Shown: positions 1 to 57,327 of the stretch, piece after piece
How positions within the stretch are numbered: position 1 is the first letter of the stretch
How the letters are laid out: each line of letters starts with the position of its first letter
Assembly (NCBI GenBank): GCA_964525635.1
Contig: CAZGJX010000008.1
Coordinates: 1-64,000, forward strand
Length of the DNA: 64,000 nucleotides
Origin: an uncultured archaeon
GTDB lineage: Archaea > Asgardarchaeota > Lokiarchaeia > Sigyniarchaeales > SOKP01
Direction of reading: 5' to 3'
Notes under the pieces: generated by a model
What the model saw: the letters and a program-made list of their open reading frames with translations, nothing else
Databases searched by the model: none
Told to the model about the DNA's origin: nothing
Translations under genes and position numbers: made by a program

Positions 1-404
1 AACATATCTTGATTCTACTCCCAATAGTTATTATTCAGATATAGGATTGAATCCAACTACAACCTATTATTACTGTGTGATTGCTGTTGATACGAACAAC
101 AACCCAAGTGCGCAATCCTCAGAAGAAAGCGCAACTACAGCTCTCGATGCAACACCACCCTCGGCGCCATCAGGACTTGTTGCCACCTCTGGTGGAGAGA
201 CCAGTATTAACCTTGACTGGAATAATAATACAGAACCTGATATTGATTATTATCGTGTATATCGAAGTACATCACCCGGATTTACTCCCGATGGATCAAC
301 ATATCTTGACTCTACTCCCAATAGTTATTATTCAGATACAGGATTGAATCCAACTACAACCTATTATTACTGTGTGATTGCTGTTGATACAAACAATAAT
401 CCGA
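1..404 (+). repeat. 297-bp-period direct repeat (one FN3 unit, 99 codons)
   Basis: 1..~107 recurs nearly identically at 298..~404. Confidence 0.95.
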
Positions 405-955
405 GTACTCCATCATTAGAAATAACTGTAAAAACTCTTAATATAGATTCTAATAATCAGGATTTATTATATATATCGATCACTATAATAATTTTAAGTG
501 CTATTGCTGTTTCTGTTCTTTCATTATATTCATTAGAATCCAAAAAGGCAAAGTTAGAAGATGAAATATCAGTTAAATTAAAAGCTAAAAAAATTGATTT
601 TAAGAAAAGTGCAAAACGTAAAAGATTTTCATTAGATAAAAGATATTGGAAACCTGAAATGAATGAGAAGATATGCAGTAAAGAAAATAAATCTATAAAA
701 ATTGACATTAACAATAATCAATTGCTTCAGATATTTAAAGAAAACCATATCCTTAAGAAAATAGATAAATCAAAAGATGTAAGAATAACTTTATTGGAAG
801 GAGATTTCTTTGATAAGGTGAACCAATTAAACTGGCAAGATGAAGATGAGAAACAAAATTTTATTAAAGAAATGCTTGCGTTATCACCAGATGAGAGAAA
901 ATTAATATTAGAAGAAATGTTGAGAGATTTAGATTTAAATCTACCTATAAAATAA
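2..955 (+). CDS. Single-pass surface protein, 5' partial: tandem fibronectin type III repeats, TM helix, basic linker and conserved cytoplasmic C-terminal domain
   Basis: Frame is open from position 2 (TYLDSTPNSYYSDIGLNP...). FN3 hallmarks (PSAPSGL, LDW, YRVYR, YSDTGL, YYYCVIAVD); TM LLYISITIIILSAIAVSVLSLY; tail LLEGDFFDKVNQLNW...ERKLILEEML. Confidence 0.85.
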   Translation, partial: TYLDSTPNSYYSDIGLNPTTTYYYCVIAVDTNNNPSAQSSEESATTALDATPPSAPSGLVATSGGETSINLDWNNNTEPDIDYYRVYRSTSPGFTPDGSTYLDSTPNSYYSDTGLNPTTTYYYCVIAVDTNNNPSTPSLEITVKTLNIDSNNQDLLYISITIIILSAIAVSVLSLYSLESKKAKLEDEISVKLKAKKIDFKKSAKRKRFSLDKRYWKPEMNEKICSKENKSIKIDINNNQLLQIFKENHILKKIDKSKDVRITLLEGDFFDKVNQLNWQDEDEKQNFIKEMLALSPDERKLILEEMLRDLDLNLPIK

Positions 956-983
956 AATATTTTTGGAGGTTGAATTATACAAA

Positions 984-1652
984 ATGGTTACTAATTTAGT
1001 AAAGCAAGAGGAACTAGTATATCAAATCATCCAAGAATATTTGAATAAAAATAGATATTTGCAGTTAAATGAAGTAATTCCCTTTATTAAAGCTAAATTA
1101 GCTAAAAAGAAAATAAATATAAATGAAACTGGGATCATTTCAATTTTATCTTCATTAGTTAAACGAAATATAATTGTAGAAGGCTCTAAATTACTCCAAG
1201 AAGATATTTTAAAGGTTCGAAAACGAAGGAGAATTTATGAATATATTCTGGAAAATCCAGGAGTATTTTATTATGATATTGTAAAAACATTAAATATTAG
1301 CAGCCATGTTGTAAGGTGGCACCTTAATATGCTTGTTCTTTTTAATTTTGTTAATAAAATAAAAATAGAAAATCATGATATTTATTTTGATGTTAGTATT
1401 AGTCAAAAGAAAGCAGAGGCAATATATTATATATCTAATGACAAATGCCGAAAGATCATCGAATATCTTAAAATTAATGATCATGGAATAACAAAAACTC
1501 AGCTTTCCAAAGATCTTAGTATGCACTTAAATACAATTTCAAAGTATTTAGAAGGTCTTGAGAATATTAGATTATTGATAAGAAAGAAATTTTCAAAGAA
1601 AACTCTTTATTTTTTAGAATTTAATAACTATAATTCTTTAATAAAAAACTAA
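984..1652 (+). CDS. Multi-winged-helix transcriptional regulator (COG3398-like double wHTH plus extra N-terminal helical/wHTH domain)
   Basis: RRRIYEYILENPG...VVRWHLNML and GITKTQLSKDLSMHLNTISKYL; GGAGGT at 965-970 favours ATG 984 over TTG 963. Confidence 0.8.
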   Translation: MVTNLVKQEELVYQIIQEYLNKNRYLQLNEVIPFIKAKLAKKKININETGIISILSSLVKRNIIVEGSKLLQEDILKVRKRRRIYEYILENPGVFYYDIVKTLNISSHVVRWHLNMLVLFNFVNKIKIENHDIYFDVSISQKKAEAIYYISNDKCRKIIEYLKINDHGITKTQLSKDLSMHLNTISKYLEGLENIRLLIRKKFSKKTLYFLEFNNYNSLIKN

Positions 1653-1845
1653 AAAATTATCTTTATTGCTAGAATATGTCTAAGGATTAAAATATATACT
1701 TTATTTAATAAATTATTAATTTCGATAATCAGACACAATTCTAAAAATTTGAATTTTGTTTCATTAATTGTTTACATTGTCAAAGACCTTAAATTTTAAT
1801 TGAATTAATAAAAGGATGAAATTAGATAATTAATTAAAATCTAAA

Positions 1846-2414
1846 TTGTTTAGGGAACTCATTCAATTTTTCTCCATAGCATTTTATATAACACTTTTAT
1901 CAATAATTTTATTATACCATATTTTTGAATTTATTCTAAATTAATTTAATAAAATATTATTTTTAGAGAAAAATAAAAAAGAAGATTATTAGAACCTGGA
2001 TTCTGGATTCCAAAATCAATTGAAAAAACTATGATAATAAAAAGAGATAATTTAAGAAAATTATATGATAATAAACTGTATGTTATCTTTGAAAAAAATC
2101 ATTTACGAGAGAAATTAGCTAAATTAAAGGATATAAAAATAACATTATTGGAAGGAGATTTTCTAAATAAAATTGAACAATTTAATTGGGAATATAAAAC
2201 AGAAAAACGTACTTTTGTTAAGGAAATGATTGCTTTATCACTAAGCGAGAGACGATTAGTTTTTGAAGATATGATGGAGGATATAGATTTAATTTTATAT
2301 AGCAAATAATTTTTTTTTAGAGGTATGATTTTAAATTATTGATAAGAAAAAAAATGTCAAATAAAATTCTCTATTTTTTAGAATTAATAGAATTATAATT
2401 CTTTATTAAAATAA
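1846..2414 (+). pseudogene. Decayed duplicate of the surface-protein tail plus wHTH cassette (contains ORF 2031..2309)
   Basis: 2031..2309 aligns with the C-terminal domain of ORF 2..955; homology extends upstream (KRRLLEPGFWIP vs KRKRFSLDKRYWKP); hydrophobic remnant at ~1846-1945; 2335-2414 matches the last ~80 nt of the wHTH gene (1571-1652). Confidence 0.75.
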
Positions 2415-2511
2415 TATATCCAATTCTTTTTAAGTATAATAATTTATATTGAAATCTTATATTTAATAAACACTAAATTATAATATTTATCGTTTCAGCA
2501 TTAGACTAATA

Positions 2512-2979
2512 ATGACTAGAATTATAAAAAAAAAAAATCTTAATGATTATATAAGAATTATATTTCATGATGAAGAATGGGAAAAAAGAGCAGAAGCTGC
2601 TAGAAAATTAGGATATTTACAAGATACTCGTGCAGTTAATTTGATGTGCCGTGCGCTTATTAATGAGAAGGATTATATGGTTATTAATCGAATCATAGAA
2701 GCTTTAGGAAGGCTAGGTAATCCAAAGGCTACTTTAGTTATTGTAAATAAACTTAAAGAAGAAATTAAAAACTTTTTAGAAAAAGAAAGTGTAGATAAAT
2801 ATAGAATAACTATTATATTAGAGAGTTTGATAAATATAAATGATAAAAGGGCTCTTTATATTATTGGGTTTTTTTTAAATTCACTAGATGATGATTTAAA
2901 ATCATTAACCAAGAAGGCTTTCGACAAGATCTTACCAAACTGGAGAGAATATAATAATGAAGAATTAAAAAATATATGA
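2512..2979 (+). CDS. HEAT-repeat (PBS lyase-like) protein
   Basis: KRAEAARKLGYLQDTRAV and IIEALGRLGNPKA repeats. Confidence 0.8.
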   Translation: MTRIIKKKNLNDYIRIIFHDEEWEKRAEAARKLGYLQDTRAVNLMCRALINEKDYMVINRIIEALGRLGNPKATLVIVNKLKEEIKNFLEKESVDKYRITIILESLININDKRALYIIGFFLNSLDDDLKSLTKKAFDKILPNWREYNNEELKNI

Positions 2980-3117
2980 ATTCATATTTAACTTCTATTA
3001 TAAAAAAAAATGTACCTTTCTAAAATTAGTCTTTTAGATATCAATATTTTAATAAAAAAATTAATTAAATTCTTAGGACCAAATAAATTAATAAGAATTC
3101 TTTGAAGGTAAGAGAAT

Positions 3118-4227
3118 TTGTCTAAAAAAAGGGTTGCTTGTTGGGATCTAGAAGGCCCTATTAGTATATTGGATTTTGCAGCAGATATAGGAAGATTGCT
3201 TAATAAAAAAATAGAGTTGGGTTTGGATAATTATGATATGGCAGATTTTTTCTTTATGATATCTCTCTATGATGATTATTTAATAGATACTCCAAAAATA
3301 AAAGAGAAATTAGGAATTTTAGATTATCAACCAGGTGATACCTTGAGATTGATGGCTCCTATATATGTATCATGTTTTTCAAATGAAGAATTAATTAACA
3401 TAGCAAAAAATAATACTGGTATTCTATCTGGTATAAAAGAATTAATAAATATAATAAAAAAAAAATGGGATATTTTTATAATTTCTACAAGTTACAATCA
3501 ATTTGCTCATCAAGTAACTGGTGAATTGGGAATAAAAAAAGATCATGTTTATTGTACAGATTTCCCTATAGAGAAATTAAAAAGTGATTCTTCAAATATT
3601 AAAGAAAAAATCAATATTCTTGTAAAAATAATATTTCAAAAATATCTTGATAATAATAAAAACCTTGAATTTGTTTTAGATGATTTAAATCATTTTTTTT
3701 GGGAAGATAATTCCTCCGATTATATAAATATAATGAACTCTATAGAGGTGAGAGGAGGAAAAAGGAAGGAGCTAGCTGTTGAACAAATCTCCAAGATTAC
3801 AAGGACACCTATTTCAGAGATGATCGCACTAGGTGATTCGATTACGGATATAAATATGTTAGACCGCCTTAAGAAAGAGAAGGGGATTGCAATCTCATTT
3901 AATGGAAATAAGTTTTCATTAAGATATGCAACTATTGCAGTAACATCTATAAATGGATTAGGTCTTCTTCCAATTTTCGAAAATTATAGTAATATTAAAG
4001 AATTTCTCGAGAATTGGGAATTTCAATTTCCTAAGTTTAAGAATAATCCAAAAAATATATCAAATGACTTAATTTCGACAAATTGCAGAGATTTCTATAT
4101 TAAATATAATTTTCTACCCGAAATTATTAATTTAAATAATAAATCAACTGAAGAATTAGAGAAAATTATATTAAAACAAGAAGATATGCGTAAAAAAGTG
4201 AGGGGTTGGGCGGGGAAATTAGGATAA
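3118..4227 (+). CDS. HAD-superfamily hydrolase, EhaR/COG4030-like
   Basis: WDLEGPIS motif I, IISTSY, GDSITD, ISFNGN. Confidence 0.8.
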   Translation: MSKKRVACWDLEGPISILDFAADIGRLLNKKIELGLDNYDMADFFFMISLYDDYLIDTPKIKEKLGILDYQPGDTLRLMAPIYVSCFSNEELINIAKNNTGILSGIKELINIIKKKWDIFIISTSYNQFAHQVTGELGIKKDHVYCTDFPIEKLKSDSSNIKEKINILVKIIFQKYLDNNKNLEFVLDDLNHFFWEDNSSDYINIMNSIEVRGGKRKELAVEQISKITRTPISEMIALGDSITDINMLDRLKKEKGIAISFNGNKFSLRYATIAVTSINGLGLLPIFENYSNIKEFLENWEFQFPKFKNNPKNISNDLISTNCRDFYIKYNFLPEIINLNNKSTEELEKIILKQEDMRKKVRGWAGKLG

Positions 4228-4231
4228 AATT

Positions 4232-4825
4232 TTATACTAATTCATTTCCCACATTTAAAAAATTATTTTTATAATACTCTAATCCTTTTTTAAGTTCTCG
4301 TCTTTTTTTAATGTTATGATAAAAAAGGTATATAATTGGTATAATAAAGAAAGCTAAATAATAAAATTTAATCTGATAAATATAAATAAAAAATAAAACA
4401 GATACCAATGAATATACAGCATATAGTGAGTTATATAGAAATAAATTCGATCTCCATTTAGAACTTTCCACAAATTTATTATCTTTTAAAGTATCATAAC
4501 ATGTACAACAAATTAATGGTATTTCAATGTTATTTTTCGCTTTATAGTATAATTTATGCATAACAGTAAACATTCTATCAATTTTATTTCCACATAATTT
4601 ACAATTAAAGTTTCTTTTCTTTAGACGATCATATTCAATTTGAAGAATTTCAGATTTTGGAAAATAACAATTATCATTATGAAAATGTGAACAAGTTTTA
4701 CAAGTTAGTTCTTTTTCTAACACTCGATCATTATAATAATCATCGAAAAATTCGTAATTTGAATGAATTTTGCAAATGACTCTTCCTTTCTTATCTATTT
4801 CAAAGGTTGGTTCTACGTGAGGCAT
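4232..4825 (-). CDS. Cys-rich putative zinc-binding membrane protein
   Basis: CKIH, CKTCSH, CKLC and CCTC motifs; two C-terminal hydrophobic helices. Confidence 0.65.
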   Translation of the reverse strand: MPHVEPTFEIDKKGRVICKIHSNYEFFDDYYNDRVLEKELTCKTCSHFHNDNCYFPKSEILQIEYDRLKKRNFNCKLCGNKIDRMFTVMHKLYYKAKNNIEIPLICCTCYDTLKDNKFVESSKWRSNLFLYNSLYAVYSLVSVLFFIYIYQIKFYYLAFFIIPIIYLFYHNIKKRRELKKGLEYYKNNFLNVGNELV

Positions 4826-5066
4826 GTCTCAATATAAATTATTCATATAGATTTTTATTATTATAAATTTCTAACTTATTAATAAATTAAAGCAAAATTA
4901 AAATTAAAAATCTATTCTAAATTTTAAATATCTTAATTACGATTTTATTTATATAAGATTAATTTAACTTTTATGAATTTTAAGTAATATACCAATTAAT
5001 AGAAAATTTAATAAATATCATAATTCTATATTACCTATATTTTACTTATTCAAGAATCGTTTTTAT

Positions 5067-6053
5067 ATGAAATATAGACCTCTTGGAAAAATAGATTTTA
5101 AGGTTTCAGAAATCTCTACTGGATGCTGGCAGTTAGGCGGTAGATGGGGAGAACCATTTGATGAAATATTAGCCCAAGATACTTTAGAGGCCTCATCTTC
5201 TAATGGAATAAACTTTTTTGATACTGCTGATATATATCGAGCTGGTGAAAGTGAGAGATTTTGTGGAAATTTTATTAATTCTACTAAGGAAAAGATTTTT
5301 TTAGCTACTAAATGTGGTAGAAGATTAAATCCACATAATGTAGAAGGATATAATGAAAAGAATATAAGAAAATTTGTTGATGATAGTCTCCAAAATATGC
5401 AAATCGAAACAATAGATCTGATCCAATTACACTGTCCTCCTACTGGTGTTTATTATAAACCAGAAGTATTTGATGTTTTAGATGCTTTAATTGATGAAGG
5501 TAAAATCCATAATTATGGAGTAAGTGTTGAAAAAGTAGAGGAAGCATTAAAAGCTATAGAATATCCTAATATATCAACCATTCAAATTATTTTTAATATT
5601 TTTCGCCAAAGACCTAGTGAATTATTTTTTAAGGAAGCTAAAAAAAAAAATATTGGAATTATTGTTAGAGTACCTTTAGCTAGTGGTTTATTGACTGGAA
5701 AATTAAACAAAAACACAGTATTTAAAGAGGGTGATCATAGAAATTTCAACAGAAATGGTGAAGCATTTGATAGAGGAGAAACATTTGCTGGAGTGGATTA
5801 TGAATTAGGATTAAAAGCAGTTGATGAATTAAAACAAGTTTTTGGGAATTTAGATAATTTAGCTCCATATTCTTTAAGATGGATTTTAATGTTTGATGCA
5901 GTCTCATGTATTATTCCAGGCGCAAGCCATGTTGGTCATGTAATTTCGAATATTGAAGCATCTGATTTACCTCCTTTTACCAATGATCAAATGAAGCAAG
6001 TTAAAGAAATTTATGAAAAATATATAAAAGATTCTGTTCATCATTTATGGTAA
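5067..6053 (+). CDS. Aldo/keto reductase
   Basis: GCWQLGG, FFDTADIY, ATKCG, IDLIQLH, PLASGLL, IIPG. Confidence 0.93.
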   Translation: MKYRPLGKIDFKVSEISTGCWQLGGRWGEPFDEILAQDTLEASSSNGINFFDTADIYRAGESERFCGNFINSTKEKIFLATKCGRRLNPHNVEGYNEKNIRKFVDDSLQNMQIETIDLIQLHCPPTGVYYKPEVFDVLDALIDEGKIHNYGVSVEKVEEALKAIEYPNISTIQIIFNIFRQRPSELFFKEAKKKNIGIIVRVPLASGLLTGKLNKNTVFKEGDHRNFNRNGEAFDRGETFAGVDYELGLKAVDELKQVFGNLDNLAPYSLRWILMFDAVSCIIPGASHVGHVISNIEASDLPPFTNDQMKQVKEIYEKYIKDSVHHLW

Positions 6054-6138
6054 TTCTTTTATAGTCTTATTCCAGAAAAAAGAATTTAAGATGCTCTAAA
6101 TTATTAAATTTTAATTTTAAAAAAAAACAAACAAAAAA

Positions 6139-7671
6139 ATGAAATATTATTTAACTGGAACAATAATTCTTAATAAAGATATTACGACGCATAAAATAAA
6201 AGTTTTAGAATATTTAAAGCAAGCTGAAAATGATATCCTAAAAAAACTCAAAGATCTAGATGAAATTAATTATAGATCGGAATATGAGCTTAAAAATGGT
6301 TCTTCTATCAGAATGAAAATAAATACTCATAAAAGATCAGCTCATATGATATTTTATCGAATAAGAAAATCTCTTGCTGAGTATTTAGGTAAAAATTTAC
6401 ATATTGGAATTAAATCATTAGAAATTGAGTTTTTAAGGATAATTTTTCAACTTGAGAAATTACCCCAAGATCCTTTAACAATACCCTTCGTTAAAAAATT
6501 AGAATTTGATGATGAAGAAAAAACTTGTTTAATCGAATTAGATAATGTTGATAAAAGGTTCATTACCCAAGGGAATGTTGAGAGAATTATAAAGAGGATT
6601 AAAGAAAAAATCGATTTATCTTATTATGAAGGCAAAGCAGAATATCATAAACTTATTTATAAAAGTCCTAAAAGAGAGATAAAAATAAAAAGCGATCCAA
6701 CAACAGAAATGGTTAATCTTAATTGGATTTCTCCCGCTTCTACAAAAGGAAAATGGATTTATTGGGCTCCAGCAACAAATATTTTCTATACTATGGAAAA
6801 AATTGTAGTTGAGGAGGTATTAAAACCTTTAGGATTTAATGAGATGATTAATTCTAATATCGTATCTGGAGAAGATGTTTGGATAAAAACGGGTCATTTA
6901 GAAGGAATGCCAATGGAAATCTATTATGTTGCTGAACCAAAAACAAGAAATGTCAAAGACTGGGAACCTTTTATAGATTTGGTTAAAATTACTCAAGAGA
7001 TTCCTTATGATGAATTTATGAAAATGATACAATTAAAACCTCTAAAAGGTCTTGTTTATGCTCAATGTCCATCCATTTATTGGGCATTAAAGGGAAAAAC
7101 AATAGCAAATGATTCATTTCCAATATTATTATTTGAAAAAACAACAAACTCCTTTAGATATGAATCAGGTGGAAGACATGGAATTGAGAGAGTCGATGAA
7201 TTCCATAGAATTGAAGTTGTGTTCATTGGTGAGCCAAAAGATCTATTAGAATTACAAAAAGAAATCCTTGATAAATATAAATATATCTTCAATGAGATTC
7301 TTGAAATAGAATGGCGAATGGCAAGTGTTACTCCGTTCTACATGCAGCAAGCAGGAGATATCTTTAGGGAAGGAGTTGAGGAAGGTCAGCTAGGAACATT
7401 AGATTATGAAGCATGGTTACCATATAGAGGAACAAGAGATGAGAGTGAGTGGTTGGAATTTCAAAATTTATCTATTGTTGGTGAGAAATATGTAAAAGCT
7501 TTCAATTTGAAGCACCAGAAAAATAAACTGATATGGAGTGGATGCACCGGTATTGGTTTAGAAAGATGGGTAGCGGTATTTTTAGCTCAGCATGGTTTCA
7601 ATATTGATGATTGGCCGAAAAATTTTAGAAAGTTTCTTCCCAAAATGCCAGATCAACTTAAATTTCTTTAA
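6139..7671 (+). CDS. serS: Seryl-tRNA synthetase, type 2 (methanogen-type)
   Basis: YAQCP, FRYESGGRHGIERVDEFHRIE, WLEFQNLS, WSGCTGIGLERW; long alpha/beta N-terminal domain. Confidence 0.92.
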   Translation: MKYYLTGTIILNKDITTHKIKVLEYLKQAENDILKKLKDLDEINYRSEYELKNGSSIRMKINTHKRSAHMIFYRIRKSLAEYLGKNLHIGIKSLEIEFLRIIFQLEKLPQDPLTIPFVKKLEFDDEEKTCLIELDNVDKRFITQGNVERIIKRIKEKIDLSYYEGKAEYHKLIYKSPKREIKIKSDPTTEMVNLNWISPASTKGKWIYWAPATNIFYTMEKIVVEEVLKPLGFNEMINSNIVSGEDVWIKTGHLEGMPMEIYYVAEPKTRNVKDWEPFIDLVKITQEIPYDEFMKMIQLKPLKGLVYAQCPSIYWALKGKTIANDSFPILLFEKTTNSFRYESGGRHGIERVDEFHRIEVVFIGEPKDLLELQKEILDKYKYIFNEILEIEWRMASVTPFYMQQAGDIFREGVEEGQLGTLDYEAWLPYRGTRDESEWLEFQNLSIVGEKYVKAFNLKHQKNKLIWSGCTGIGLERWVAVFLAQHGFNIDDWPKNFRKFLPKMPDQLKFL

Positions 7672-7920
7672 TTATCTTTGGAAATTCCTCTTCCAAAATT
7701 CTAATGAAAGAAATAAAATAATTTATCTATTATTTGTCTATTTTCTTGATAATAATGGATTTTAGATGTAAAAATATTATTTTTTTTTTAAATAGTTACA
7801 TAGGATTTTTTATAGATCTTAATATTATTAATAATAACATAGCAATTGGAAAAAAGTAAATACTTTATAATTTGATTATTATCCCATAAGGTTTTTTTCC
7901 AAAAAAAAGGGTTATTTAAC

Positions 7921-11826: not shown

Positions 11827-12013
11827 ATTTCTGTTTTTAATAATCCCAATTTTTATATTACATACAGATTACCTCATTATATATAATCTATCGTGAGACA
11901 CTGTTTCATGAATTATTAAAAAAAAATTGATATTTTTATACTCTATATTCTTTTAAATTTCCTGAGAACTTATATAAATTTAATATATATATAATAATTT
12001 AGTAAAACTTACA

Positions 12014-14796: not shown

Positions 14797-14808
14797 GGTG
14801 AAAAGTAT

Positions 14809-46997: not shown

Positions 46998-47063
46998 TTT
47001 CTATTTAAATATATGAATTTTTAGCATTTTTATTTTAAATATAAATGATAATAAAAAAAAAAC

Positions 47064-47768: not shown

Positions 47769-47916
47769 ATAGATTTCTCTTTAACTTTTATTCAGATCGA
47801 GAATATTAAATTATTTTTCATTTCTGTTTATTATTCATTTTAAAAAAAGTTTATTCATAAATATTATTAAATCCTCTATATTTTAAGATATAAAATTCAA
47901 ATGGTTTTTTTAAGTC

Positions 47917-49005
47917 ATGTCTTTTAATGAAGATTTTATACTTATTAAAAAATTAACTGAAACTCAAAGTTGCAGTGGGAATGAAAATAAAATACGTGAA
48001 CTGATTATAGAAAATGTCAAAAATGATTGCGACAAATTAGAAGTTGATTATTTAGGTAATTTATTTTGTTATATATATGGAGAAGCAAGTACAACAAATA
48101 AAAAACTTAACATATTGCTAGATTCCCATATGGATGAAATTGGATTTATTGTTCGGTTTATAGATAAAAAAGGATTCATTAGATTTTCTCAAGTAGGAGC
48201 CCAAAATCTAAGGATTTTACCTGGTCAAACAGTAACTATTCATTCTAATTCAGGTGAAGATATTATCGGAATAATCGGTGAAAAACCTATTCATTTATTA
48301 AATAATGAAGAAAGGAAGAAAGTAAACAAAGCTGATGATTTATTTATTGATATAGGAATGTCAAGTGATAAAGAAGTGAAAAAATATATTGCTGTTGGAG
48401 ATTATATAACTTTAAAGCAAGAATGCATTTCATTTACGGGAAAAAAGAGAATATTTTCAAAAGCTTTTGACGACAGAGCTGGATGTTTTATACTTATTAA
48501 ATTAATTAAAGAATTTATTCATCTTAAAAAAGATCTAGATAAAAATATTATATTTTTATTCGCATCCCAAGAAGAAATTGGTGTAAGAGGTGCGACAGTA
48601 GGTTCTTATAAAATTGATCCTGATATTGGAATTGCGGTCGAAGTAACCCACTCAATTGATTACCCTGGAATAAGTAAGGAAAAATATTATGACTGTTCTT
48701 TAGGATCTGGTGCTTCAATTAGTATAGGTCCCAATATATTTCCAAAACTATCAAAAACCTTTATTAATATTGCAAAAGAAGAAAATATACCCTATATTCT
48801 AGAAGCAGAGCCTCGTCAAGCCCCTAATGATGCAAGAGCAATCCAAATCACTAAAAAGGGAATTCCATCATCGATTATATCTGTCCCATTGAGATACATG
48901 CATACAAATATCGAAACTATAGAATATGAGGATATTTTAAGTTGTATAAAACTATTAAAAATGTTCCTCTTGATGGATTTATGCAATATTCTAAACTATG
49001 AGTAA
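47917..49005 (+). CDS. M42 family aminopeptidase
   Basis: SHMDEIG, KAFDDRAG, QEEIGVRGA, RYMHT. Confidence 0.93.
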   Translation: MSFNEDFILIKKLTETQSCSGNENKIRELIIENVKNDCDKLEVDYLGNLFCYIYGEASTTNKKLNILLDSHMDEIGFIVRFIDKKGFIRFSQVGAQNLRILPGQTVTIHSNSGEDIIGIIGEKPIHLLNNEERKKVNKADDLFIDIGMSSDKEVKKYIAVGDYITLKQECISFTGKKRIFSKAFDDRAGCFILIKLIKEFIHLKKDLDKNIIFLFASQEEIGVRGATVGSYKIDPDIGIAVEVTHSIDYPGISKEKYYDCSLGSGASISIGPNIFPKLSKTFINIAKEENIPYILEAEPRQAPNDARAIQITKKGIPSSIISVPLRYMHTNIETIEYEDILSCIKLLKMFLLMDLCNILNYE

Positions 49006-49014
49006 TATTTAAGA

Positions 49015-49614
49015 TTAATCTGATATAAAAAGTTCTTTTTTTTTTATCATCTTTCCTAAGTTTACCAATGCTGTTTCTATCAATTCTTTTTTATTAATTC
49101 CAGTTAGTACCACCTTTCCAGTACTAAATATTAAGAAAACAGAAGTGAATGGTTTATAAATTTTATATATTATTCCAGGAAAAATCTCCGGTTCATACAT
49201 AGCATTCTCAAGTTTTAAAGATGCTAAATTGAGATCAATATTTCGAAAATAATTAGCTGTAATGACAATATTCACTACCTCTGTTTTAATTGAATTAATA
49301 TCTATATTTATATCAAAAGTATGTTCCTTATTTAACATTGATATAAGTCTTTCAACTACTATATTGATATGTTCAAAATGGATTAAACCTGTTAAGATAA
49401 TATTGCCATTTTTAAATATTATCACAACACATTTAGGTTTTAGAAATCTCATGAAGAGTCCAGGAAAATTTTTAGAATTATAATTTGAGTTTTCTATTTT
49501 TTTGAAAATAAGATTTAGATCGATAATTTTATGTAAGCTAGATTTAACTACAATATTTTGAATAGTATAAGTTAATTCATTATTTTTCTCTTCTGAGATT
49601 CCTTCAACTGCCAT
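49015..49614 (-). CDS. tbp: TATA-box binding protein (divergent paralog)
   Basis: Two repeats: NIV...FPGL...IFKNGNIILTG and NIV...YEPEIFPGIIY...LIFSTGKVVLTG. Confidence 0.9.
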   Translation of the reverse strand: MAVEGISEEKNNELTYTIQNIVVKSSLHKIIDLNLIFKKIENSNYNSKNFPGLFMRFLKPKCVVIIFKNGNIILTGLIHFEHINIVVERLISMLNKEHTFDINIDINSIKTEVVNIVITANYFRNIDLNLASLKLENAMYEPEIFPGIIYKIYKPFTSVFLIFSTGKVVLTGINKKELIETALVNLGKMIKKKELFISD

Positions 49615-49885
49615 TAAATTTCATTTATTAGAAAATTAGGTGTAATAATTATATAAAAATAATTAGGACAGCATTATATTTAATTCTTGGTTTCAATATT
49701 TTTTAGATTATGAATATTAAAAATCCAGACAAAAAGAATGTGTTGTTTGAATTTTGTAATAATTTATCTATATTTATCATTCCCAAATTATATTTAAAAT
49801 ATGTTTAATAAATATTCCAAGTAAATTTTTTAATTATTATAAATTTAAATTTGTACAAGTTAACAAAATTAGAATTGACTATTTT

Positions 49886-51598
49886 ATGAAAAAAGGATTA
49901 CTAAAAAAAATATTATTTGCTGTTCTTTATTCTTTAAATTTAATTATAGGTTTCTTTATTGGCTATTTTCAAGCAGAATCACAATCAGAAATATCATTAA
50001 TTTCATTTAGTATAGTTCTTCCAGTTTTATTATTAATTATCATAATTCTAACTATTTTATTTATGAAAGGAAATCGAATTAAAACAAAATATGTTATTTA
50101 TATTTTAATTTATTTCATATTAAACTTATTTTTTGGGCTTGTAATTGGTTTCAGTATACCACTAATGACGGGATTTAATCCTGAGAATATGGGGTATGTT
50201 ATGATTCCTTTATTATGTGTACTAAATTATAATATAGTTGATAGATTGGATATCTATATTAAAGAAAATCTATCCCCTGATAAATTAAATAAAGATCTAG
50301 ATAAAGGAGAAGAATTAGTTACAGATAAACCTAGGCAAGATTTTTATAGAAAAAGGAATTTTTTGAGGAATTTAGGATTTTGGGGATTATTTTCAGGAAA
50401 TTTATTGTTAGCATTTATCTTTGGTTATATTATAAGTAGAATTTTTCCATCTATCCCATATCTTTTAACTCTATTGATTCTTTTAATCCCATTTTCTATT
50501 ATTATAGCTATTTTAACTAAACTAATTATAAAAGGAAATCAAATAGAAATAAAATATAAATGCTATATATTTGTTTATTTTCTATCCAATCTTATAGTTG
50601 CCTTTTTAATTGGTTATAACTTAGCTATTGTAGATATAAAAGATGTAGAAATAATTGGATATTTGATGATCCCTCTGTTATGTCTAATTAATCTTAGTAT
50701 AATTAATAGGTTAGATTTATATATAAAAGACCATAGTTCTTTAAATGGAGAGAACAATGAGCTAATAACTAGAAAATTACCTATAATTGAATATGAAGGA
50801 AAAAACTATATTTTTTCAATTGAATCTTTAATTATATTAGGAATAGGAGCTCCATTTTTAGTTTTATTAATCTATTTCTTCTTTGCATGGGAATGGAACT
50901 ATTGGTTACATGAAATTGTTATAAAACAAACAACATTTTTCTTAAATTGGTTTTTTGACATGGGAGTTACTTTAATATATCTCCCAGGAGAATATAATCC
51001 TTGGAAGTTTAATATACCCGGTACACCAAATATAATCAGCTTAGAAACATTTTGCACCGGAATTCAAGCAATATGTATTTTTGTAGGGATCTTTCTTTTA
51101 ACTCCACATTCAAAAGATACAAAAACTAGACAAAGCACAATCTGGAGAAAAGTAAAAGGAATTATTATCTCATCGATAATATTTTATGTTGTTAATATAC
51201 TTCGAATGATTATTCAACTATATCTCTATTACCTTGGATATCCATGGAATGATATACATTATTCAATAAGCGTGGCAAGCTCATTTATCGCAGCAGTAAT
51301 TGTTTTATTGATGCATAAATGGGTTCCAGAATTTATACTTAGTTTTATTTACGTCTTCAGTCTTATAAAGGGAGGTTCTAAACCTAAAAATAAAAAAGTA
51401 AAAGTCTTAGTATGCTCAAATTGTAGTGCAGTTGCTATAAATTTAAAACAAAAAACTTGTCAGAATTGTGGATTAATGTTAGTTAAATCAACTGGTATTA
51501 AATGCTCTGAATGTGGAACTATATCTCCTAATAAAGAACAACTAGTTTGTGAAAAATGTGGGGCAGAGATACGTAGTCTAAAAAAACGCAAGAATTAA
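49886..51598 (+). CDS. Archaeosortase/exosortase-family transpeptidase with duplicated N-terminal membrane domain and C-terminal double zinc ribbon
   Basis: Catalytic Cys (FCTG), Arg (NILRM), His (DIHY); two ~120-aa hydrophobic repeats ending MIPLLC...RLD(I/L)YIK; CSNC/CQNC/CSEC/CEKC. Confidence 0.85.
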   Translation: MKKGLLKKILFAVLYSLNLIIGFFIGYFQAESQSEISLISFSIVLPVLLLIIIILTILFMKGNRIKTKYVIYILIYFILNLFFGLVIGFSIPLMTGFNPENMGYVMIPLLCVLNYNIVDRLDIYIKENLSPDKLNKDLDKGEELVTDKPRQDFYRKRNFLRNLGFWGLFSGNLLLAFIFGYIISRIFPSIPYLLTLLILLIPFSIIIAILTKLIIKGNQIEIKYKCYIFVYFLSNLIVAFLIGYNLAIVDIKDVEIIGYLMIPLLCLINLSIINRLDLYIKDHSSLNGENNELITRKLPIIEYEGKNYIFSIESLIILGIGAPFLVLLIYFFFAWEWNYWLHEIVIKQTTFFLNWFFDMGVTLIYLPGEYNPWKFNIPGTPNIISLETFCTGIQAICIFVGIFLLTPHSKDTKTRQSTIWRKVKGIIISSIIFYVVNILRMIIQLYLYYLGYPWNDIHYSISVASSFIAAVIVLLMHKWVPEFILSFIYVFSLIKGGSKPKNKKVKVLVCSNCSAVAINLKQKTCQNCGLMLVKSTGIKCSECGTISPNKEQLVCEKCGAEIRSLKKRKN

Positions 51599-51697
51599 TT
51601 ATTATTTTTTTAATTTATTAAAAAAAAACCAAAAACTAATTAAACTTTATCAATTAGCATTAAACATCTTATGTTCAAATAATAATTAAAATATATT

Positions 51698-52600
51698 ATG
51701 CTAAATTTTGAAAAAGACCAAAAAACCCAAAAGATTTATAATGTCAATCTTGGAGGAAATGTCGGGGAGAATCCTATTGCTGCTATAGCTAGTGTCTTTT
51801 ATTCTAAACATAAAGCTCTTCTCGATGAAAAAACTGGTAAAATAAATAAGAAATTAATTGAAAAAGAATTAAATGAATTCTTAGATATAATAGATGCAAC
51901 AGGGATTCAAGCAATAATTGATGTTGTTGGGGCTACTCCAAAAGCTCTTCTTAAGGAATGCGTCTATATTGCTGATAATATTGATTTTCCTTTTTTAGTT
52001 GATGGTCTAAATGATGAAATTAGAATCCCAGCCATGAAAGACTTGAAAGAAATTGGATTATTAGATAGAGCTATACTCAATAGTATTGATGAAAATACAT
52101 CAGATGAGACTCTAAATAAAATTCGTGAAATCGGAGTTAAAAATGCGGTGCTATTAACTTTTAGTACAAGACATGTTTTTCCCCAACAAAAAATTGAATT
52201 ATTAGAAAATGTTTTGATTCCTAAGGCAGAAAAAGTAAATATTAAAAATATTATAATAGATACAGCTGTTTTAGATTTACCATCAATGGGTATAAATTTT
52301 GAAACCGTTAAATTGGTAAAAGAAAGATTTGGTTTACCAGCAGGCTATGCTCCTTCAAATGCTATTTTTGGATGGGAATTTATAAGAAAATATGGAGATG
52401 AGGCCAAATGTGGAGCAATTGCATCTATTATGGTTAATTGTGTTAATGCGGGGAGTGATTTTGTTCTATTTGGTCCCATTAAATTTGCTAAATGTATAGT
52501 ACCATCTATTGCATTAGTATCTGGAATTAATTCCTATTATAGAAAGAGAATTCTAAGAAAAGAAATTTCCAACAGAGAATTTATAAAACATATTTTTTAA
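51698..52600 (+). CDS. mtrH: MtrH-family pterin-dependent methyltransferase (stand-alone)
   Basis: FEKDQK, GGNVGENP, SVFYSKH, PFLVDG, ILNSI, IIDTAVLD, GLPAGYAPSNA, GSDFVLFGPI. Confidence 0.85.
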   Translation: MLNFEKDQKTQKIYNVNLGGNVGENPIAAIASVFYSKHKALLDEKTGKINKKLIEKELNEFLDIIDATGIQAIIDVVGATPKALLKECVYIADNIDFPFLVDGLNDEIRIPAMKDLKEIGLLDRAILNSIDENTSDETLNKIREIGVKNAVLLTFSTRHVFPQQKIELLENVLIPKAEKVNIKNIIIDTAVLDLPSMGINFETVKLVKERFGLPAGYAPSNAIFGWEFIRKYGDEAKCGAIASIMVNCVNAGSDFVLFGPIKFAKCIVPSIALVSGINSYYRKRILRKEISNREFIKHIF

Positions 52601-54102
52601 GATATATAAGTTAAGAGTAAATCTTTAATTCGATTTGTAAAATCTATTAATAATCTATCTATTTTTTCTTTTTTATCAACAGTATCGACTAAAAATAAAA
52701 TATGTAAATTTGTTTCAAAAATATCTAATTTTTTAATAAGGACAAATGAATTTGCTAATTTAAATATAGCTTTATCCTTTTTAAGTGCTTTAAACTTATG
52801 GAATATCTTATATAACATAGTAAACTGGGGGGCAGTTATTTCAAAAATATCTTGCAGAATTTCTTTTTTTTCTTCATTTTCCATTAAATTACCTGCCTTA
52901 TATGAATAAAAATCAGCTATAACTAATCCATCGTCACTTAATAATAGTGTTATATACACATCAGTTTTTTTGGAAAATTTTTTGAGATTATGAATTATTA
53001 AATCTCTATTTGGACTTAATTTTGATATTCCAGAGGAAAAAGCTCTTAGAATAGTTGTAATTTCAAAAATACTAGTAATATAAAAATCGAATTTTTTGTC
53101 TGTTGATAAATTAGCAATTTGAGATTTTAAATTCTTTATATTTTGTTTAATTTCTTTTGATTCTAATATATCCATATCACCTTTAGAGAAAATAAACACC
53201 ATTGGTGTATTTTGATCTAATTCTTTTTCTAATACATTGTTGATGTTTTTTAAATAATCTAAACTCTCTTTGAATCTCTCTTTATTTTTAATATCAATAA
53301 AATAAAAAATTAAATCTGTTTCATAGAGATATATATCTGATTTAACTAGATATTTATCCCTTGAGCTAGATTGACCACCTAAATCCCATAAAATTAATGA
53401 TGCTCCTAAGGCTTGGATGGATTGAACACTTGCTCCTCGTGTTGGTTTTAATCTCATTAATTTTGAGAATTTCCTATCAACTGTCAATAGAAAAGAAGTT
53501 TTCCCAGAGTCATCAAGACCAGCTAGAATTATTTTCATTTTTCTTTGAGTTGAAGCTGGGGTTATTGGTTGTTTTTCTATTTGAATTAAATCTTTAATGA
53601 ATTTTTTAAAAAAAGGTCTAACTTCTTCTTCATCCAAAAATCCATCAATTAGTATTTTGTCAAAATCATCAAAAAAGCTCTCTACAATATTTTGAATTCG
53701 CTTATAATTATTATATAAAAAATTACGTTTATTCTCATCAATTAAAATTGAAAATGCCGTTTCAATTGGCTTAATTTTAGTATTTATTTGCAAGTAATGG
53801 AAATAAGTTAATGATGTAAGGTTGAAATCTGGATATGGAATTATTGCAAAATATTTGAATTCCTTTATATTATTTCTATCTGGGATAATTTCATCTGTTA
53901 ATAAAAGACTTAGATTTTTAATAGCAATTTGCATATAATCTCGAAAGGTTAATGATAATAAGTTTTTTCTTTTCTTTGACTTGGGTTCTATATGTATATC
54001 AGGAACCATTTGAGGATAAACATATTTTGGTTGAGGTCCTAATTCATCGTGGATACAAAAAACAAAACCTTTTATTATTGATGATGAGAGTTCTTTTTCC
54101 AT
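52597..54102 (-). CDS. Longin/uDENN-like domain + Arf/Rag-like GTPase + roadblock-like domain fusion
   Basis: FVFCIHDELGPQP; GLDDSGKTS, PTRG, WDLGGQ, SKGD, ITSI; C-terminal LLLSDDGLVIA. Confidence 0.82.
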   Translation of the reverse strand: MEKELSSSIIKGFVFCIHDELGPQPKYVYPQMVPDIHIEPKSKKRKNLLSLTFRDYMQIAIKNLSLLLTDEIIPDRNNIKEFKYFAIIPYPDFNLTSLTYFHYLQINTKIKPIETAFSILIDENKRNFLYNNYKRIQNIVESFFDDFDKILIDGFLDEEEVRPFFKKFIKDLIQIEKQPITPASTQRKMKIILAGLDDSGKTSFLLTVDRKFSKLMRLKPTRGASVQSIQALGASLILWDLGGQSSSRDKYLVKSDIYLYETDLIFYFIDIKNKERFKESLDYLKNINNVLEKELDQNTPMVFIFSKGDMDILESKEIKQNIKNLKSQIANLSTDKKFDFYITSIFEITTILRAFSSGISKLSPNRDLIIHNLKKFSKKTDVYITLLLSDDGLVIADFYSYKAGNLMENEEKKEILQDIFEITAPQFTMLYKIFHKFKALKKDKAIFKLANSFVLIKKLDIFETNLHILFLVDTVDKKEKIDRLLIDFTNRIKDLLLTYIS

Positions 54103-54300
54103 TTTTATTACTTTGTATTTTTATATAAATCTAAAATGTTTTTTATTTATTTTATTAGGTATAAGTTTAAATTAATAAGTTTATTTGGCAATTAAAAAAA
54201 TTTACAGATTTTTTAAAATGTAATTAAAAATTAATTAGAATATTTATAATTGTATTTTTGAAGGAAAAAAAAAGGTTAATTAGAGTTTAAAATAATAAAG

Positions 54301-55257
54301 ATGTTAAAAAAAATAGCAGAGACTATTAGAGAAAATAAAAAATTAATAGTTAAAAAAGAAATTTATCCAATAGTTAATTTTATTGATGCAAACTCCTATA
54401 AAAATAGTAGAATTTTTTCAAGTATAGGAGAAGATAGTGCAGCAATCAAAAATGGGGATAAATACATATTAATGACCACTGATAGAATTAAAACTTCTTT
54501 TATTAATAATAATCCTTTTGGGGCAGGATTTAGTTCTATTTTGGTAAGTGTTGATGATATTTATGCTTGTGGAGGATTTCCAATCGCAGCAAGTATAATT
54601 CTCTCTTATAAAGATGATATTATTGGAAAACAAATTATGGAGGGTATTTGTGAGGGATCTAAGAAGTTTAAGGTCCCAGTTATTAGAGGTCATACGAATC
54701 TTGGTGGTGAAAATGAATTAAGTTCAACAATTATAGGAGAAATAAAAAAAGACAATTATATTTCTGCGTGTGGAGCAAAGGTTAACGATAAAATCATTTT
54801 AGCTGTTGATTTTAATGGAAAAATTGGAAAAACAAATAAATATATTTATGATACTACAACCTTTAAGAGTTCTGAGAGAATTCTCTATAAAAGAGAAAGT
54901 ATGAATATTATAGCAAAAAAAAAGATTGTTAATGCATCAAAAGATATTTCAAATGGGGGAATATTTGGAACATTAATACAATTAATTAAATTTTCTGGGC
55001 TTGGAGCTGAAATTTATATTGATAATATAGAAATACCACCCATATTAATTGAATTAAATTACGATTTAAATATGTTTTCAAAAATGTATTTAACTACTTC
55101 ATTTATTTTGACAGCTCCTGAAGAAAAATGCAAAACAATTATTGAAGTTTTTAAAGACCATGGAATGAAGGCACATATAATTGGAAATATAACGAAAAAT
55201 AAAGAAATCTTAAGAATTTATAATAAAAAAGGTGTTATGGAAACAATCAGTTTCTAA
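54301..55257 (+). CDS. AIR synthase (PurM)-superfamily protein, COG2144-like
   Basis: GEDSAAI, VDDIYACGGFP, GHT, KDISNGG. Confidence 0.82.
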   Translation: MLKKIAETIRENKKLIVKKEIYPIVNFIDANSYKNSRIFSSIGEDSAAIKNGDKYILMTTDRIKTSFINNNPFGAGFSSILVSVDDIYACGGFPIAASIILSYKDDIIGKQIMEGICEGSKKFKVPVIRGHTNLGGENELSSTIIGEIKKDNYISACGAKVNDKIILAVDFNGKIGKTNKYIYDTTTFKSSERILYKRESMNIIAKKKIVNASKDISNGGIFGTLIQLIKFSGLGAEIYIDNIEIPPILIELNYDLNMFSKMYLTTSFILTAPEEKCKTIIEVFKDHGMKAHIIGNITKNKEILRIYNKKGVMETISF

Positions 55258-55445
55258 GTGTTTTAAGAAGAAGAGATCTTTTAATACACCAATTATTTTT
55301 GATGATAAAAACCTGATTAAAAAAAAAAGGATTAAGAAAATATCTGAAAAATATTAATAAAATTTTAATATATGATAAAATATTATTTTTTTATAGATCG
55401 CGATAATAAAATTTCATCAATCCATAAATAAGGATAAAATTTTTT

Positions 55446-56621
55446 ATGAGAAAAAATAAAATTAAAAATAATATATTTAAGTTATTTATATTTCTATTAT
55501 TAGTTAATACTCTTATTTTTCTCAATTTTAATAAATTTACATATTTTAATAATGAATCTATTGCTTTAATAAATCCTCATATAAATTCAATAATTCTTAC
55601 CAATACAACTGTATTATCTGATGGGTACAGTGGAAACTATTGGAATGATGGAATAAGTGAGGAAACAATATAATTATTGATGAAACAGGTAAAATACATT
55701 TAGTTTTAGAGGATAGTACTAATGGACGTTTTGGGGACTGACAGTGAAATAATGTATATTTCATCTATAAATGGGATAGATTGGTTAAATCCTATAGTTA
55801 TTTTAGATGGATACAATAATTATTATTGGAATACCGGAAAAAGTTTTTCTCCAGATATAACAGTAGATAATGAAAGTAATATTCATGCTGTATGGACCGA
55901 TCATACAAAGGGATTTTGGGATAATGATACTGAAATCTTATATTTAGTTAGTCAATATGAATATGAAGACCTAATATGGGATGAAATTCCATTAGATCAA
56001 AGAATTGCTTATAGTAAAAGTTTTTCTTATGATATAAATGCTTCTGATCCTACAGGGATTACGTATTATTGGATTAATGATACTTTAAATTTTGATATAG
56101 AAATAAATGGTATTATTACTAACAACTCAATTTTAGACGTAGGAATTTATTGGATTGAAGTACGTGTTTATGATTGTGATGATAATTATTATAGTGCAAA
56201 TATTAAAATCACTGTATTTAAATCACCTAAAAAAGATATTTTTCCAATTTTAAATATTGCATTAATAAATGGAGCTTTAATTGGGGCCTCTGGCTTCGCA
56301 TTATTTTATTTACATAAAAAAAATCTATTTACTAAAATAGGTTTCAAAAGTAAAACAGGTCCTAAAAAATTACCCATAAAGCCTATTAGGGGCCAAAATG
56401 TTTTGTCGAAATTAGTTCAAGAGAATATAATAGATAATTTAAGTAATATTAAGGGTCTTAAGTTAACCAGTTTTAACAGAAAAGATATAGCATTTATAGA
56501 TCAATTTCAATGGGATCAAAATGAGAGAACCGAATTTTTATATGATTTAGCTTTTTTCTCAGAGAAGAAGCGCCAAAAAATCTTCAATGAGTTGAAATTT
56601 TATCAAAATAATTTGAATTAA
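55446..56621 (+). pseudogene. Frameshifted single-pass surface protein (propeller-like repeats, Ig-like domain, TM, conserved cytoplasmic tail)
   Basis: Signal peptide; repeat SDG...YWN-G-S...D...IH-V-D-T-G...D-EI-Y is split over three frames between ~55660 and ~55740; TM ILNIALINGALIGASGFALFYL; tail IDQFQWDQNERTEFL...KRQKIFNEL. Confidence 0.75.
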
Positions 56622-56646
56622 AAAATCAAATAGGATAGATATAAAA

Positions 56647-57327
56647 ATGCATATTAAACTTACTCATCAAGAGAATTTGATTCTAAATATTGTTCAACAA
56701 CATCTAGAAAAAAAGAGAGAGTTCAATATGAAAAAATTATTATCATTAATTCAAATTAGATTCAGATTAAGTAATATTAATGTTAATAAAAATGGGATAC
56801 AAAATATATTAAGATCATTAATTAAGAAAAATTTTGTTGTAGAAGGGTCAAAATTAGTAAAAACTAACATATTAAATAATCAAAAAAGAAGAATAATATT
56901 TAAATATATAACGAATCATCCAGGAACTTATTTCCTTGAAATTGTTAAAGATTTAAATTTAAATTTTAATGTAGTTATTTGGCATTTAAATATTTTGGAA
57001 AAATTCACACTAGTTAAAAGAAAACAAATTGAAAATCGTTATATATATTTTAATAATCAAATAGATTTTAAACAAGTTAAGCAAATACATTTCTTGGAAA
57101 GAAATAAAACAATTAAGATAATCAACTTTCTCAAACAAAATAATAATGGTATAACTAAAACTAAATTAGCTGAATATCTTAATATGCATTATAATACAAT
57201 TAAAAAGTATATTGATAAAATGGAGCAATATGATCTTTTAAATAAAAAATATGAATCAAATAAACTACTATATTTATTGAATTTGGAAAATTATAAACAA
57301 GCAAAATCTGAATTTAATTTGGAGTAA
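56647..57327 (+). CDS. Multi-winged-helix transcriptional regulator, paralog of 984..1652
   Basis: Shared VEGSKL, PG, VV-WHL, GITKT, L-MH-NTI-KY motifs along the full length. Confidence 0.85.
   Translation: MHIKLTHQENLILNIVQQHLEKKREFNMKKLLSLIQIRFRLSNINVNKNGIQNILRSLIKKNFVVEGSKLVKTNILNNQKRRIIFKYITNHPGTYFLEIVKDLNLNFNVVIWHLNILEKFTLVKRKQIENRYIYFNNQIDFKQVKQIHFLERNKTIKIINFLKQNNNGITKTKLAEYLNMHYNTIKKYIDKMEQYDLLNKKYESNKLLYLLNLENYKQAKSEFNLE

Follow-up and report, generated by a model that had tools for sequence, protein, structure and literature searches.

What joins the surface proteins and the putative transcription regulators that are encoded side by side at two loci of a Lokiarchaeon contig? The stretch of DNA analyzed here (the window) is C8:1-64000, the first 64,000 nucleotides (nt) of contig C8 in an assembly of 4.45 Mb with 26.8% G+C (genome G000; the labels C8, C10, C12, C33, C75, C110 and C222 denote its contigs). 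NCBI labels close homologues of the window's proteins Promethearchaeota or Candidatus Lokiarchaeota archaeon. A sequence-only reading had pointed out a recurring module in which the gene for a single-pass surface protein (the sensor) precedes that for a winged helix-turn-helix (wHTH) protein (the regulator), and had proposed that a cytoplasmic domain shared by sensors with unrelated outer parts (the tail) holds the regulator at the membrane. To our knowledge, little is known of archaeal transmembrane signaling beyond two-component systems and chemotaxis. We have found that tail and regulator represent undescribed families in Asgard archaea, and that the arrangement is of a known kind, that of membrane-held transcription proteins. 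The domain family, its gene linkage, fusions, dead GH9 sites in the sensors and a promoter element were computed here. In our judgment it is probable that the tail docks the regulator at the membrane, that the ectodomain binds polysaccharide and that the regulator acts on promoters bearing the element.

At both loci the surface-protein gene is indeed followed directly by a paralogous wHTH gene, with gaps of 7 nt (pair 1) and 25 nt (pair 2), and the two regulators are 43% identical over 206 amino acids (aa; E 2e-53; Table 1). The open reading frame (ORF) of sensor 1 is truncated at its 5' side by the contig end; what remains encodes FN3 repeats (PF00041, E 1.6e-9), a single transmembrane segment (aa 155-173, nt 464-520), a Lys-rich linker and the tail at aa 232-313. 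Its missing N-terminal part is very probably supplied by the 3-kb contig C222, whose FN3 DNA is 94% identical to positions 1-408 of the window and whose 882-aa ORF encodes a signal peptide, an apparently dead GH9 domain, a CBM3 and FN3. Sensor 2 is not one intact ORF, as its frame changes near 55665 and returns near 55735, both times at short homopolymer runs. The break is a pair of frameshifts, reflecting either a pseudogene or an assembly error; a mini-intron was considered and rejected, since the 70 nt in the middle, when read in another frame, yield an ordinary repeat unit. The ectodomain of sensor 2 matched no Pfam family. A third copy of the module had been described as decayed but of the same order. 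The order stands, and about 590 nt of its regulator (pair-1 coordinates 970 to 1564) have been deleted, since the stretches on both sides still align with pair 1 (2085-2324 with 731-970 at 72.5% identity, 2328-2411 with 1564-1646 at 84.5%). Decay is not the whole of it, however, as copy 3 keeps a promoter element, a TATA box and an intact tail-only ORF of 92 aa. A candidate transmembrane remnant at 1866-1940, upstream of this copy, was rejected; the stretch consists of the promoter element and TATA box.

Table 1. Features of the receptor-regulator modules in the window.
Feature	Position (nt)	Strand	Content or evidence
Sensor 1, C-terminal part	2..955	+	FN3 repeats, one transmembrane segment, Lys-rich linker, tail
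Tail domain 1	695..940	+	Cytoplasmic domain of ~80 aa; own-genome hidden Markov model (HMM), E 5.9e-29
Regulator 1, triple winged-helix protein, 229 aa	963..1652	+	HTH_24 match, structure model, complex model
Family promoter element TTCAATTTTTCTCCATA, 3 nt, TATA box TTTTATATAA	1862..1890	+	142 nt 5' of the copy-3 tail-only ORF
Copy 3, intact tail-only ORF, 92 aa, no transmembrane segment	2031..2309	+	HMM, E 1.3e-25
Regulator remnant, last ~28 codons	2328..2411	+	84.5% identical to 1564-1646
Sensor 2: signal peptide, propeller-like repeats, Ig-like part, transmembrane segment, tail	55446..56621	+	Two compensating frameshifts
Tail domain 2	56376..56615	+	Profile built without tail 2, E 1e-16
Regulator 2, triple winged-helix protein, 226 aa	56647..57327	+	43% identity to regulator 1

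That both sensors end in one and the same domain was not evident from pairwise comparison, in which tails 1 and 2 are weakly alike (E 2e-4); tail 3 is 52% identical to tail 1, and a profile of tails 1 and 3 alone matches tail 2 weakly (E 0.016). A profile of 117 sequences from which tail 2 had been omitted (the full profile, A2, holds 118) matches tail 2 at E 1e-16 and 60.5 bits over positions 4-79 of 81, and the claim of a shared terminal domain is borne out, with a length of ~80 aa. Iterated HMM searches of all ORFs in the genome identified 15 tail domains, spread over 14 ORFs. The long members are all built alike: a signal or anchor at the N-terminus is followed by an ectodomain that can reach 1,300 aa, one transmembrane segment, a basic linker and, at the very C-terminus, the tail. 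Among 1.84 billion representative public proteins, 303 clusters match the tail profile; in database members the tail lies within 15 aa of the C-terminus in 145 of 162 domains, and 12 of 150 proteins carry tandem tails. Across 301 genomes of the phylum, the tail was detected in 56 of 68 genomes of the window's family, in 1 of 7 of a second family and, weakly, in 2 of 4 of a third, and was not found in the other 221 genomes of the phylum that were searched. The receptor-regulator system is largely confined to one family of Lokiarchaeia.

The sequence-only reading knew of no named family for the tail, and none was found here. The tail gave no Pfam match at E up to 0.1 and no NCBIfam match, and its profile found nothing in the PDB better than E 0.72. 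The AF2 model of the tail (predicted local distance difference test, pLDDT, 82) consists of two short helices followed by a three-helix bundle. With it Foldseek returned no PDB match at E up to 0.001, VIA-align returned generic three-helix bundles only (best Z 5.5), and the ESM Atlas gave template-modeling scores below 0.5 by shape and no usable match by features; these fold searches do not establish a new fold. The tail is a clean candidate for a new protein family and marks receptors that are now labeled "beta-helix repeat protein" or "hypothetical".

A wHTH gene usually adjoins the tail homologues, as had been anticipated, in the window's own genome as well as in other genera and families of its order. 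In the Lokiarchaeon itself a family regulator adjoins 11 of the 14 tail ORFs, immediately downstream in eight cases and upstream in three, two of which have a second, short regulator. Linkage across genomes was derived from two whole-genome searches combined over the same 41 genomes, with 95 tail matches. Sixty-six of these lie beside a family regulator: the regulator starts at most 400 nt downstream on the same strand in 44, lies upstream within 6 kb in 18, and lies within 6 kb in 4 more. The 28 tails without a neighboring regulator include weak matches as well as several tails that lie a few hundred bases from a contig end. Seen from the other side, regulators with scores of 200 bits or more number 47, and 41 of them have a tail within 6 kb. 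The pairing extends to further genera and families of the order, including cases with weak tails (L033-L035). Tail and regulator distances co-vary, as expected by the sequence-only reading, with a Mantel r of 0.75 over 34 pairs (reached by 0 of 5000 permutations) and of 0.47 over the 10 paralogous pairs of this genome (reached by 13 of 5000). This co-divergence shows inheritance as units and is not proof of contact.

Gene adjacency is not the only way in which the two domains are joined. Four ORFs of one relative, 1000-1553 aa long, encode a signal peptide, a beta-helix ectodomain, a transmembrane segment, the tail and the regulator in a single frame. Querying the public set with a fused protein (a word search with regulator 1 gave none) recovered seven fused clusters, three of them from other assemblies, with 51-57% identity among them; their occurrence in other assemblies and this divergence indicate a genuine, diverged subfamily. 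In addition, five of the six strong regulators that lack a tail neighbor are 377-390 aa long and have two N-terminal transmembrane segments. In the regulator tree the fused forms make up one clade with the membrane-anchored forms as sister, both nested within the group whose regulator lies downstream; arrangements with the regulator upstream make up a separate clade, and regulator 1 groups with the regulators of other GH9 receptors. From split pairs, fusions and anchored regulators together it follows that the regulator is joined to the membrane in three ways: through the tail of the neighboring gene's product, as the rear part of a fusion that includes the tail, or by transmembrane segments of its own.

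The extra N-terminal part that had been noticed in the regulator is real and proved to be a third winged-helix-like domain. The structure model (pLDDT 93.9) has a long N-terminal helix with the first winged helix (wH1, 1-78), followed by wH2 (86-143) and wH3 (160-218). Matches to the core only (wH2-wH3, profile positions 68-216) never adjoin a tail in the searched genomes, and the extra domain therefore marks the tail-linked clade. Both window regulators pass the gathering cut-off of HTH_24 (27.0 and 28.4 bits for regulators 1 and 2, cut-off 21.9), and regulator 2 also passes that of HTH_11 (25.3 bits, cut-off 25). The models NF033789 (SdpR) and NF033788 (ArsR) gave 24.7-30.9 bits, short of membership at cut-offs of 100 and 55. 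The Pfam and NCBIfam matches of either regulator are to wHTH families only, with none to the sigma-70 family and none to Trans_reg_C. Of the three domains, wH3, whose recognition helix carries the invariant residues H188, T191 and K194, is the likelier DNA reader.

Short regulators of 144-163 aa were also observed that consist of wH1 and wH2 only, without wH3 (L004:3684-4172 (-), L003:5159-5590 (+) and L008:2480-2947 (+)). Orthologues of short regulators occur in G001 and G003, and the one on C33 is conserved at 159 aa in two sister genomes. The part that these proteins keep is the predicted tail-binding part.

Contact between tail and regulator was predicted by modeling of the cognate pair 1. 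The complex reached an interaction prediction score from aligned errors (ipSAE) of 0.75 (runs 0.75, 0.76 and 0.74), with a best value of 0.01 among three controls; of 80 solved complexes 58 reach the mark applied to this score, as do 2 of 110 mismatched pairs. At least 85% of contacts are common to the runs, and both partners have pLDDT of at least 72. We know of no similar complex, so that a pass from the memory of the predictor is unlikely. On the regulator side the interface comprises wH1 residues 20-39 and 55-77, including the near-invariant VEGSKL (72-77), and helix 3 of wH2 (113-126), including the invariant W119; on the tail side it comprises a strand region at about 35-37 and helices 49-85, including the near-invariant F60, and tail R72 is not among the listed interface residues. 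The earlier suggestion that the N-terminal domain of the regulator is the docking site is therefore matched by the model, which adds helix 3 of wH2. The third winged helix lies outside the predicted interface and is free; the model therefore supports docking but is no evidence that the tail blocks DNA binding.

The ectodomains are as diverse as had been supposed, ranging from dead GH9-CBM3-FN3 to beta-helices, propellers and lectins. In this genome, GH9 (with CBM3) and FN3 occur in the sensors of C33 and C75 and a right-handed beta-helix in those of C10, C13, C82 and C110, and the others belong to no known family. Among 39 long database members there are 13 beta-helices, five SBBP propellers, three Laminin_G_3 domains and two sialidase-type carbohydrate-binding modules; others have PQQ or WD40-type propellers or GH9. 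In alignment to Cel9G (1G87), the DAGDH motif of GH9 is replaced by DGSGS (C75), DDDGY (C33) and DGSNN (C222), and the Glu of NNEIA is replaced by Ser (C75), Arg (C33) and Arg (C222). We take the Asp of DAGD to be the catalytic base and the Glu to be the acid. Because these catalytic residues are replaced in all three GH9 ectodomains of the genome, the domains are, by their sequences, apparently binding modules and not enzymes. Adjoining the modules are genes for two dockerin-bearing proteins, a GH5 cellulase and a propeller protein, as well as genes for cohesin/PKD proteins and additional beta-helix proteins.

Comparison of upstream regions revealed a shared block, TTCAaTTTTTsTCCATA, directly upstream of a TATA box. 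Over 38 nt, the copy in the window (1862-1890) shares 89% identity with the region that holds the promoter of the C33 GH9 sensor. Its exact form, TTCA[AC]T[TA]TTT[GC]TCCA[TA]A, occurs nine times in the genome, all at module loci (once at window position 1862, twice on C10, once on C33 and five times on C110), each time with a TATA box 3-5 nt on. When up to two mismatches were allowed and a TATA-like box was demanded, 19 sites were found, as against 1-2 in shuffled genomes. Downstream of these composite sites lie ORFs for sensors, a short regulator, the Ras-like GTPase beside the C33 sensor, and signal-peptide proteins, among them PKD/ChitinaseA_N-type and cohesin/PKD proteins. An exact copy of the 17-mer stands in the promoter of the GH5-dockerin cellulase, and variants of the element precede the C222 (pair-1) sensor and stand on both strands of a divergent promoter region of C75. 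No convincing copy was found upstream of pair 2, and a repeat search around that pair returned only AT-rich noise. Archaeal activators usually bind where the site abuts the TATA box and B recognition element (BRE) region from upstream, and the position of the element would fit such an activator site.

In the mechanism that we propose, the receptor would be a type I single-pass surface protein whose outer part is swapped between copies. Its cytoplasmic tail of ~80 residues would dock the N-terminal winged helix and wH2 helix 3 of the regulator encoded by the neighboring gene and hold that regulator at the membrane. Binding of extracellular polysaccharide would then release or cluster the docked regulator and so alter its availability or its oligomeric state. 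Via its free wH3, the regulator would act on promoters in which the element immediately precedes the TATA box, and from these promoters the module genes would be transcribed, as would nearby genes whose products are secreted or cellulosome-like. What we infer in this scheme is the sensing of a ligand, the binding of DNA and the sign and direction of regulation. A more sweeping formulation, in which an undescribed three-helix docking tail and a triple-winged-helix factor, split and fused, make up a kinase-free transmembrane signaling system of the Asgard lineage that controls a cellulosome-like secretome through a TATA-abutting element, is a possibility that we would advance only tentatively.

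Several observations weigh against the proposed mechanism. Three tails of this genome stand alone, and the C110 sensor has no regulator on its contig. Sensor 2 and its closest paralogue, the C12 sensor, look broken while their regulators are intact. The ipSAE of 0.75 expresses the confidence of a model run on our own unpaired alignments, and it sets the cognate pair against controls, not against non-cognate pairs. Conserved regulator positions are mildly enriched at the interface (11 of 37, about 7 expected), which we have not used as support. As a whole chain the regulator resembles the tandem-winged-helix scaffolds of SelB, ESCRT-II and Rpc34 as much as it does regulators, and its presumed binding to DNA has wHTH family matches as its sole basis. 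The most widely conserved tail protein (see below) has a transmembrane hairpin and no ectodomain, so that the ancestral role of the tail may have been anchoring rather than sensing. Lastly, the motif was derived partly from the sites then counted, which brings some circularity into the count of exact matches; the training set did not include three of the C110 sites or most of the sites with mismatches plus TATA box.

The alternative that survives best is a constitutive tether in the style of ToxR/CadC, in which the regulator stays on the tail and contacts DNA from its place at the membrane, the tail serves as adaptor and not as inhibitor, and the signal travels by ligand-driven clustering or conformational change. 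We regard it as unlikely. The covalent fusions and the directly membrane-anchored regulators of the same clade fit a tether at least as well as they fit reversible docking, wH3 with its invariant H188, T191 and K194 is left outside the predicted interface, and tandem tails could hold a regulator dimer. Most copies are, however, two separate genes, so reversible binding is possible, and both the stable short regulators without wH3 (C33, G001 and G003) and the free tail-only ORFs are better accommodated by titration or release.

Still less probable, in our estimation, is that the triple-winged-helix protein is a cytoplasmic adaptor or scaffold on the tails of surface proteins that would, for example, organize or turn over surface enzyme complexes. 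Its whole-chain fold matches are to SelB WH2-4, ESCRT-II, Rpc34 and ScpB, its most conserved wH2 helix (W119, H120) makes the protein contact in the model, and a conserved tail protein of ~266 aa has a weak ubiquitin-like match. Set against this, the Pfam cut-offs of DNA-binding wHTH families are passed (HTH_24, and HTH_11 for regulator 2), the single winged-helix domains superpose on ArsR-type repressors at 1.4 Å over 80 residues, and the promoter element co-occurs with the modules. Finally, we give very little credence to plain operon neighbors, with a regulator that controls the adjacent surface-protein gene without contact and a tail that serves sorting, oligomerization or other anchoring, since, common as local autoregulators beside their target genes are and expected as linkage and co-divergence of adjacent genes would be without contact, the complex model stands far above its controls, tail and regulator are fused in frame, transmembrane anchors of the regulator replace the tail, and wH1 occurs only in the tail-linked clade, whose core-only relatives never adjoin a tail.

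Docking of the regulator by a receptor tail, as preferred here, has a functional parallel in the SigI/RsgI pairs by which Clostridium (Acetivibrio) thermocellum senses biomass (PMC10328401, PMC6582324, PMC4711584). Both systems comprise many paralogous adjacent gene pairs per genome (11 pairs in the Lokiarchaeon), with a single-pass sensor whose polysaccharide-binding outer module is swapped (CBM3, GH-like or PA14 in SigI/RsgI) and whose small cytoplasmic domain retains a transcription protein dedicated to it, a contact that is predicted in the present case. The targets of SigI/RsgI are cellulosome or secreted-enzyme genes, and dockerin, cohesin and GH5 genes adjoin the Lokiarchaeon modules. 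No part is homologous, however: the partner is a triple winged-helix protein and not a sigma-70 (sigma-I) factor, and the docking tail matches neither RsgI_N nor any other Pfam family. The topology is also reversed, the outer domain of the Lokiarchaeon sensors being N-terminal and the docking domain C-terminal, and these sensors have no juxtamembrane autoproteolytic domain and no sign of intramembrane proteolysis. The host, moreover, is an archaeon with TBP/TFB promoters. By analogy, the system looks like an undescribed archaeal counterpart of the bacterial anti-sigma/sigma biomass sensors.

Other comparisons are more distant. In SdpI/SdpR of Bacillus subtilis and Mlc/PtsG of Escherichia coli, a membrane protein captures a soluble (w)HTH repressor and thereby changes transcription. 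The captors there are polytopic transporters or immunity proteins without large ectodomains, and these are single systems, not expanded families; the likeness of our regulators to SdpR stays below the ArsR/SdpR model thresholds (24.7-28.1 bits for NF033789, cut-off 100), so they are not members. The fused and two-transmembrane-anchored regulators resemble ToxR/CadC as single-chain membrane proteins with a wHTH output. In ToxR/CadC an OmpR-type wHTH is N-terminal and a periplasmic sensor C-terminal, an order that is reversed in the Lokiarchaeon proteins, and unlike ToxR/CadC the latter have a wHTH of ArsR/Lrp-like type, in triplicate, with most members split into two genes. In sequence the regulators resemble the double wHTH proteins of the COG3398/HVO_0163 type. 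Both wH2 and wH3 match the N-terminal HTH model PF24266, which scores 24.5 and 29.0 bits for the window regulators against a cut-off of 31 and for which precomputed matches exist in most regulator homologues; unlike these proteins, the tail-linked clade has the extra N-terminal winged helix. The literature search found a single mention of HVO_0163, in one acetylome paper (PMC10294847), and no published account of its function. In the full-text literature we found no description of the tail, the tail-regulator pair or the promoter element, and a search for receptor-to-gene pathways found none for Asgard archaea.

A number of further observations concern the module genes. Free-standing tail-only ORFs of 92-98 aa without a transmembrane segment occur at C39:18152-18445 (-) and C10:8715-8999 (+) as well as in copy 3 of the window, of which the last at least keeps a regulated promoter; they could be soluble decoys for regulators, or deletion remnants. 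The most widely conserved tail protein, of ~266-280 aa and with one copy per genome in two genera (L048:1780-2577 (-), L021, L025 and L028), has a two-transmembrane hairpin and a mid-chain tail, and its regulator lies directly upstream. Its C-terminal stretch gives a weak match to the ubiquitin family PF00240 (E 8.5e-5, below the cut-off) and a weak match to Rad23. The propeller-type sensor subfamily has two members, pair 2 and C12, and both are interrupted next to intact regulators. The C12 sensor (a 340-aa ORF) reads on upstream in frame through a TGA, at about C12:21600-21900 (-), which sits where the repeat consensus has Trp (..IHVVW.. in the consensus, ..VYIV*S.. here); it is either a nonsense mutation or something odder.

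Others concern neighboring genes. Cellulosome-like parts are encoded at L001:6795-8531 (C10), L007:6479-8005 (C75) and L009:6722-8374 (C110), where the GH5 cellulase and a beta-propeller protein bear type I dockerins and a PKD protein bears a cohesin-like domain; our literature search found no paper on cellulosome-like dockerin/cohesin parts in Asgard archaea. A Ras-family small GTPase gene lies just upstream of the C33 GH9 sensor (L004:8671-9234 (-); C33:32670-33224), behind a near-copy of the promoter element. The ~53 kb of the window between both loci holds unrelated housekeeping genes, including those for the MtrH methyltransferase subunit, a Rag/Arf-like GTPase, an AIR-synthase-like protein and a HAD hydrolase; the Rag/Arf-like GTPase at 52597..54102 (-) is 501 aa long and has a long N-terminal extension. 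Directly 3' of regulator 2, at 57533..58246 (+), is the gene for a single-pass protein with a signal peptide, an outer part of ~150 aa of no assigned family, a transmembrane segment and a cytoplasmic zinc-ribbon (DZR-like) tail, which may be a further kind of surface-to-cytoplasm protein or the product of a target gene.

With its input domain, docking domain, regulator and candidate operator, the module offers a pathway that can be tested. Its genes suggest that plant-type polysaccharides are sensed by some Lokiarchaeia and broken down by means of cohesin/dockerin proteins. The logic of anti-sigma factors has, it seems, been invented anew from unrelated components, on transcription machinery of a eukaryote-like kind. 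If the more sweeping formulation given above holds, no receptor-to-promoter pathway would have been defined in Asgard archaea before this one, and the system would be a convergent counterpart of anti-sigma/sigma signaling that works on eukaryote-like TBP/TFB machinery.

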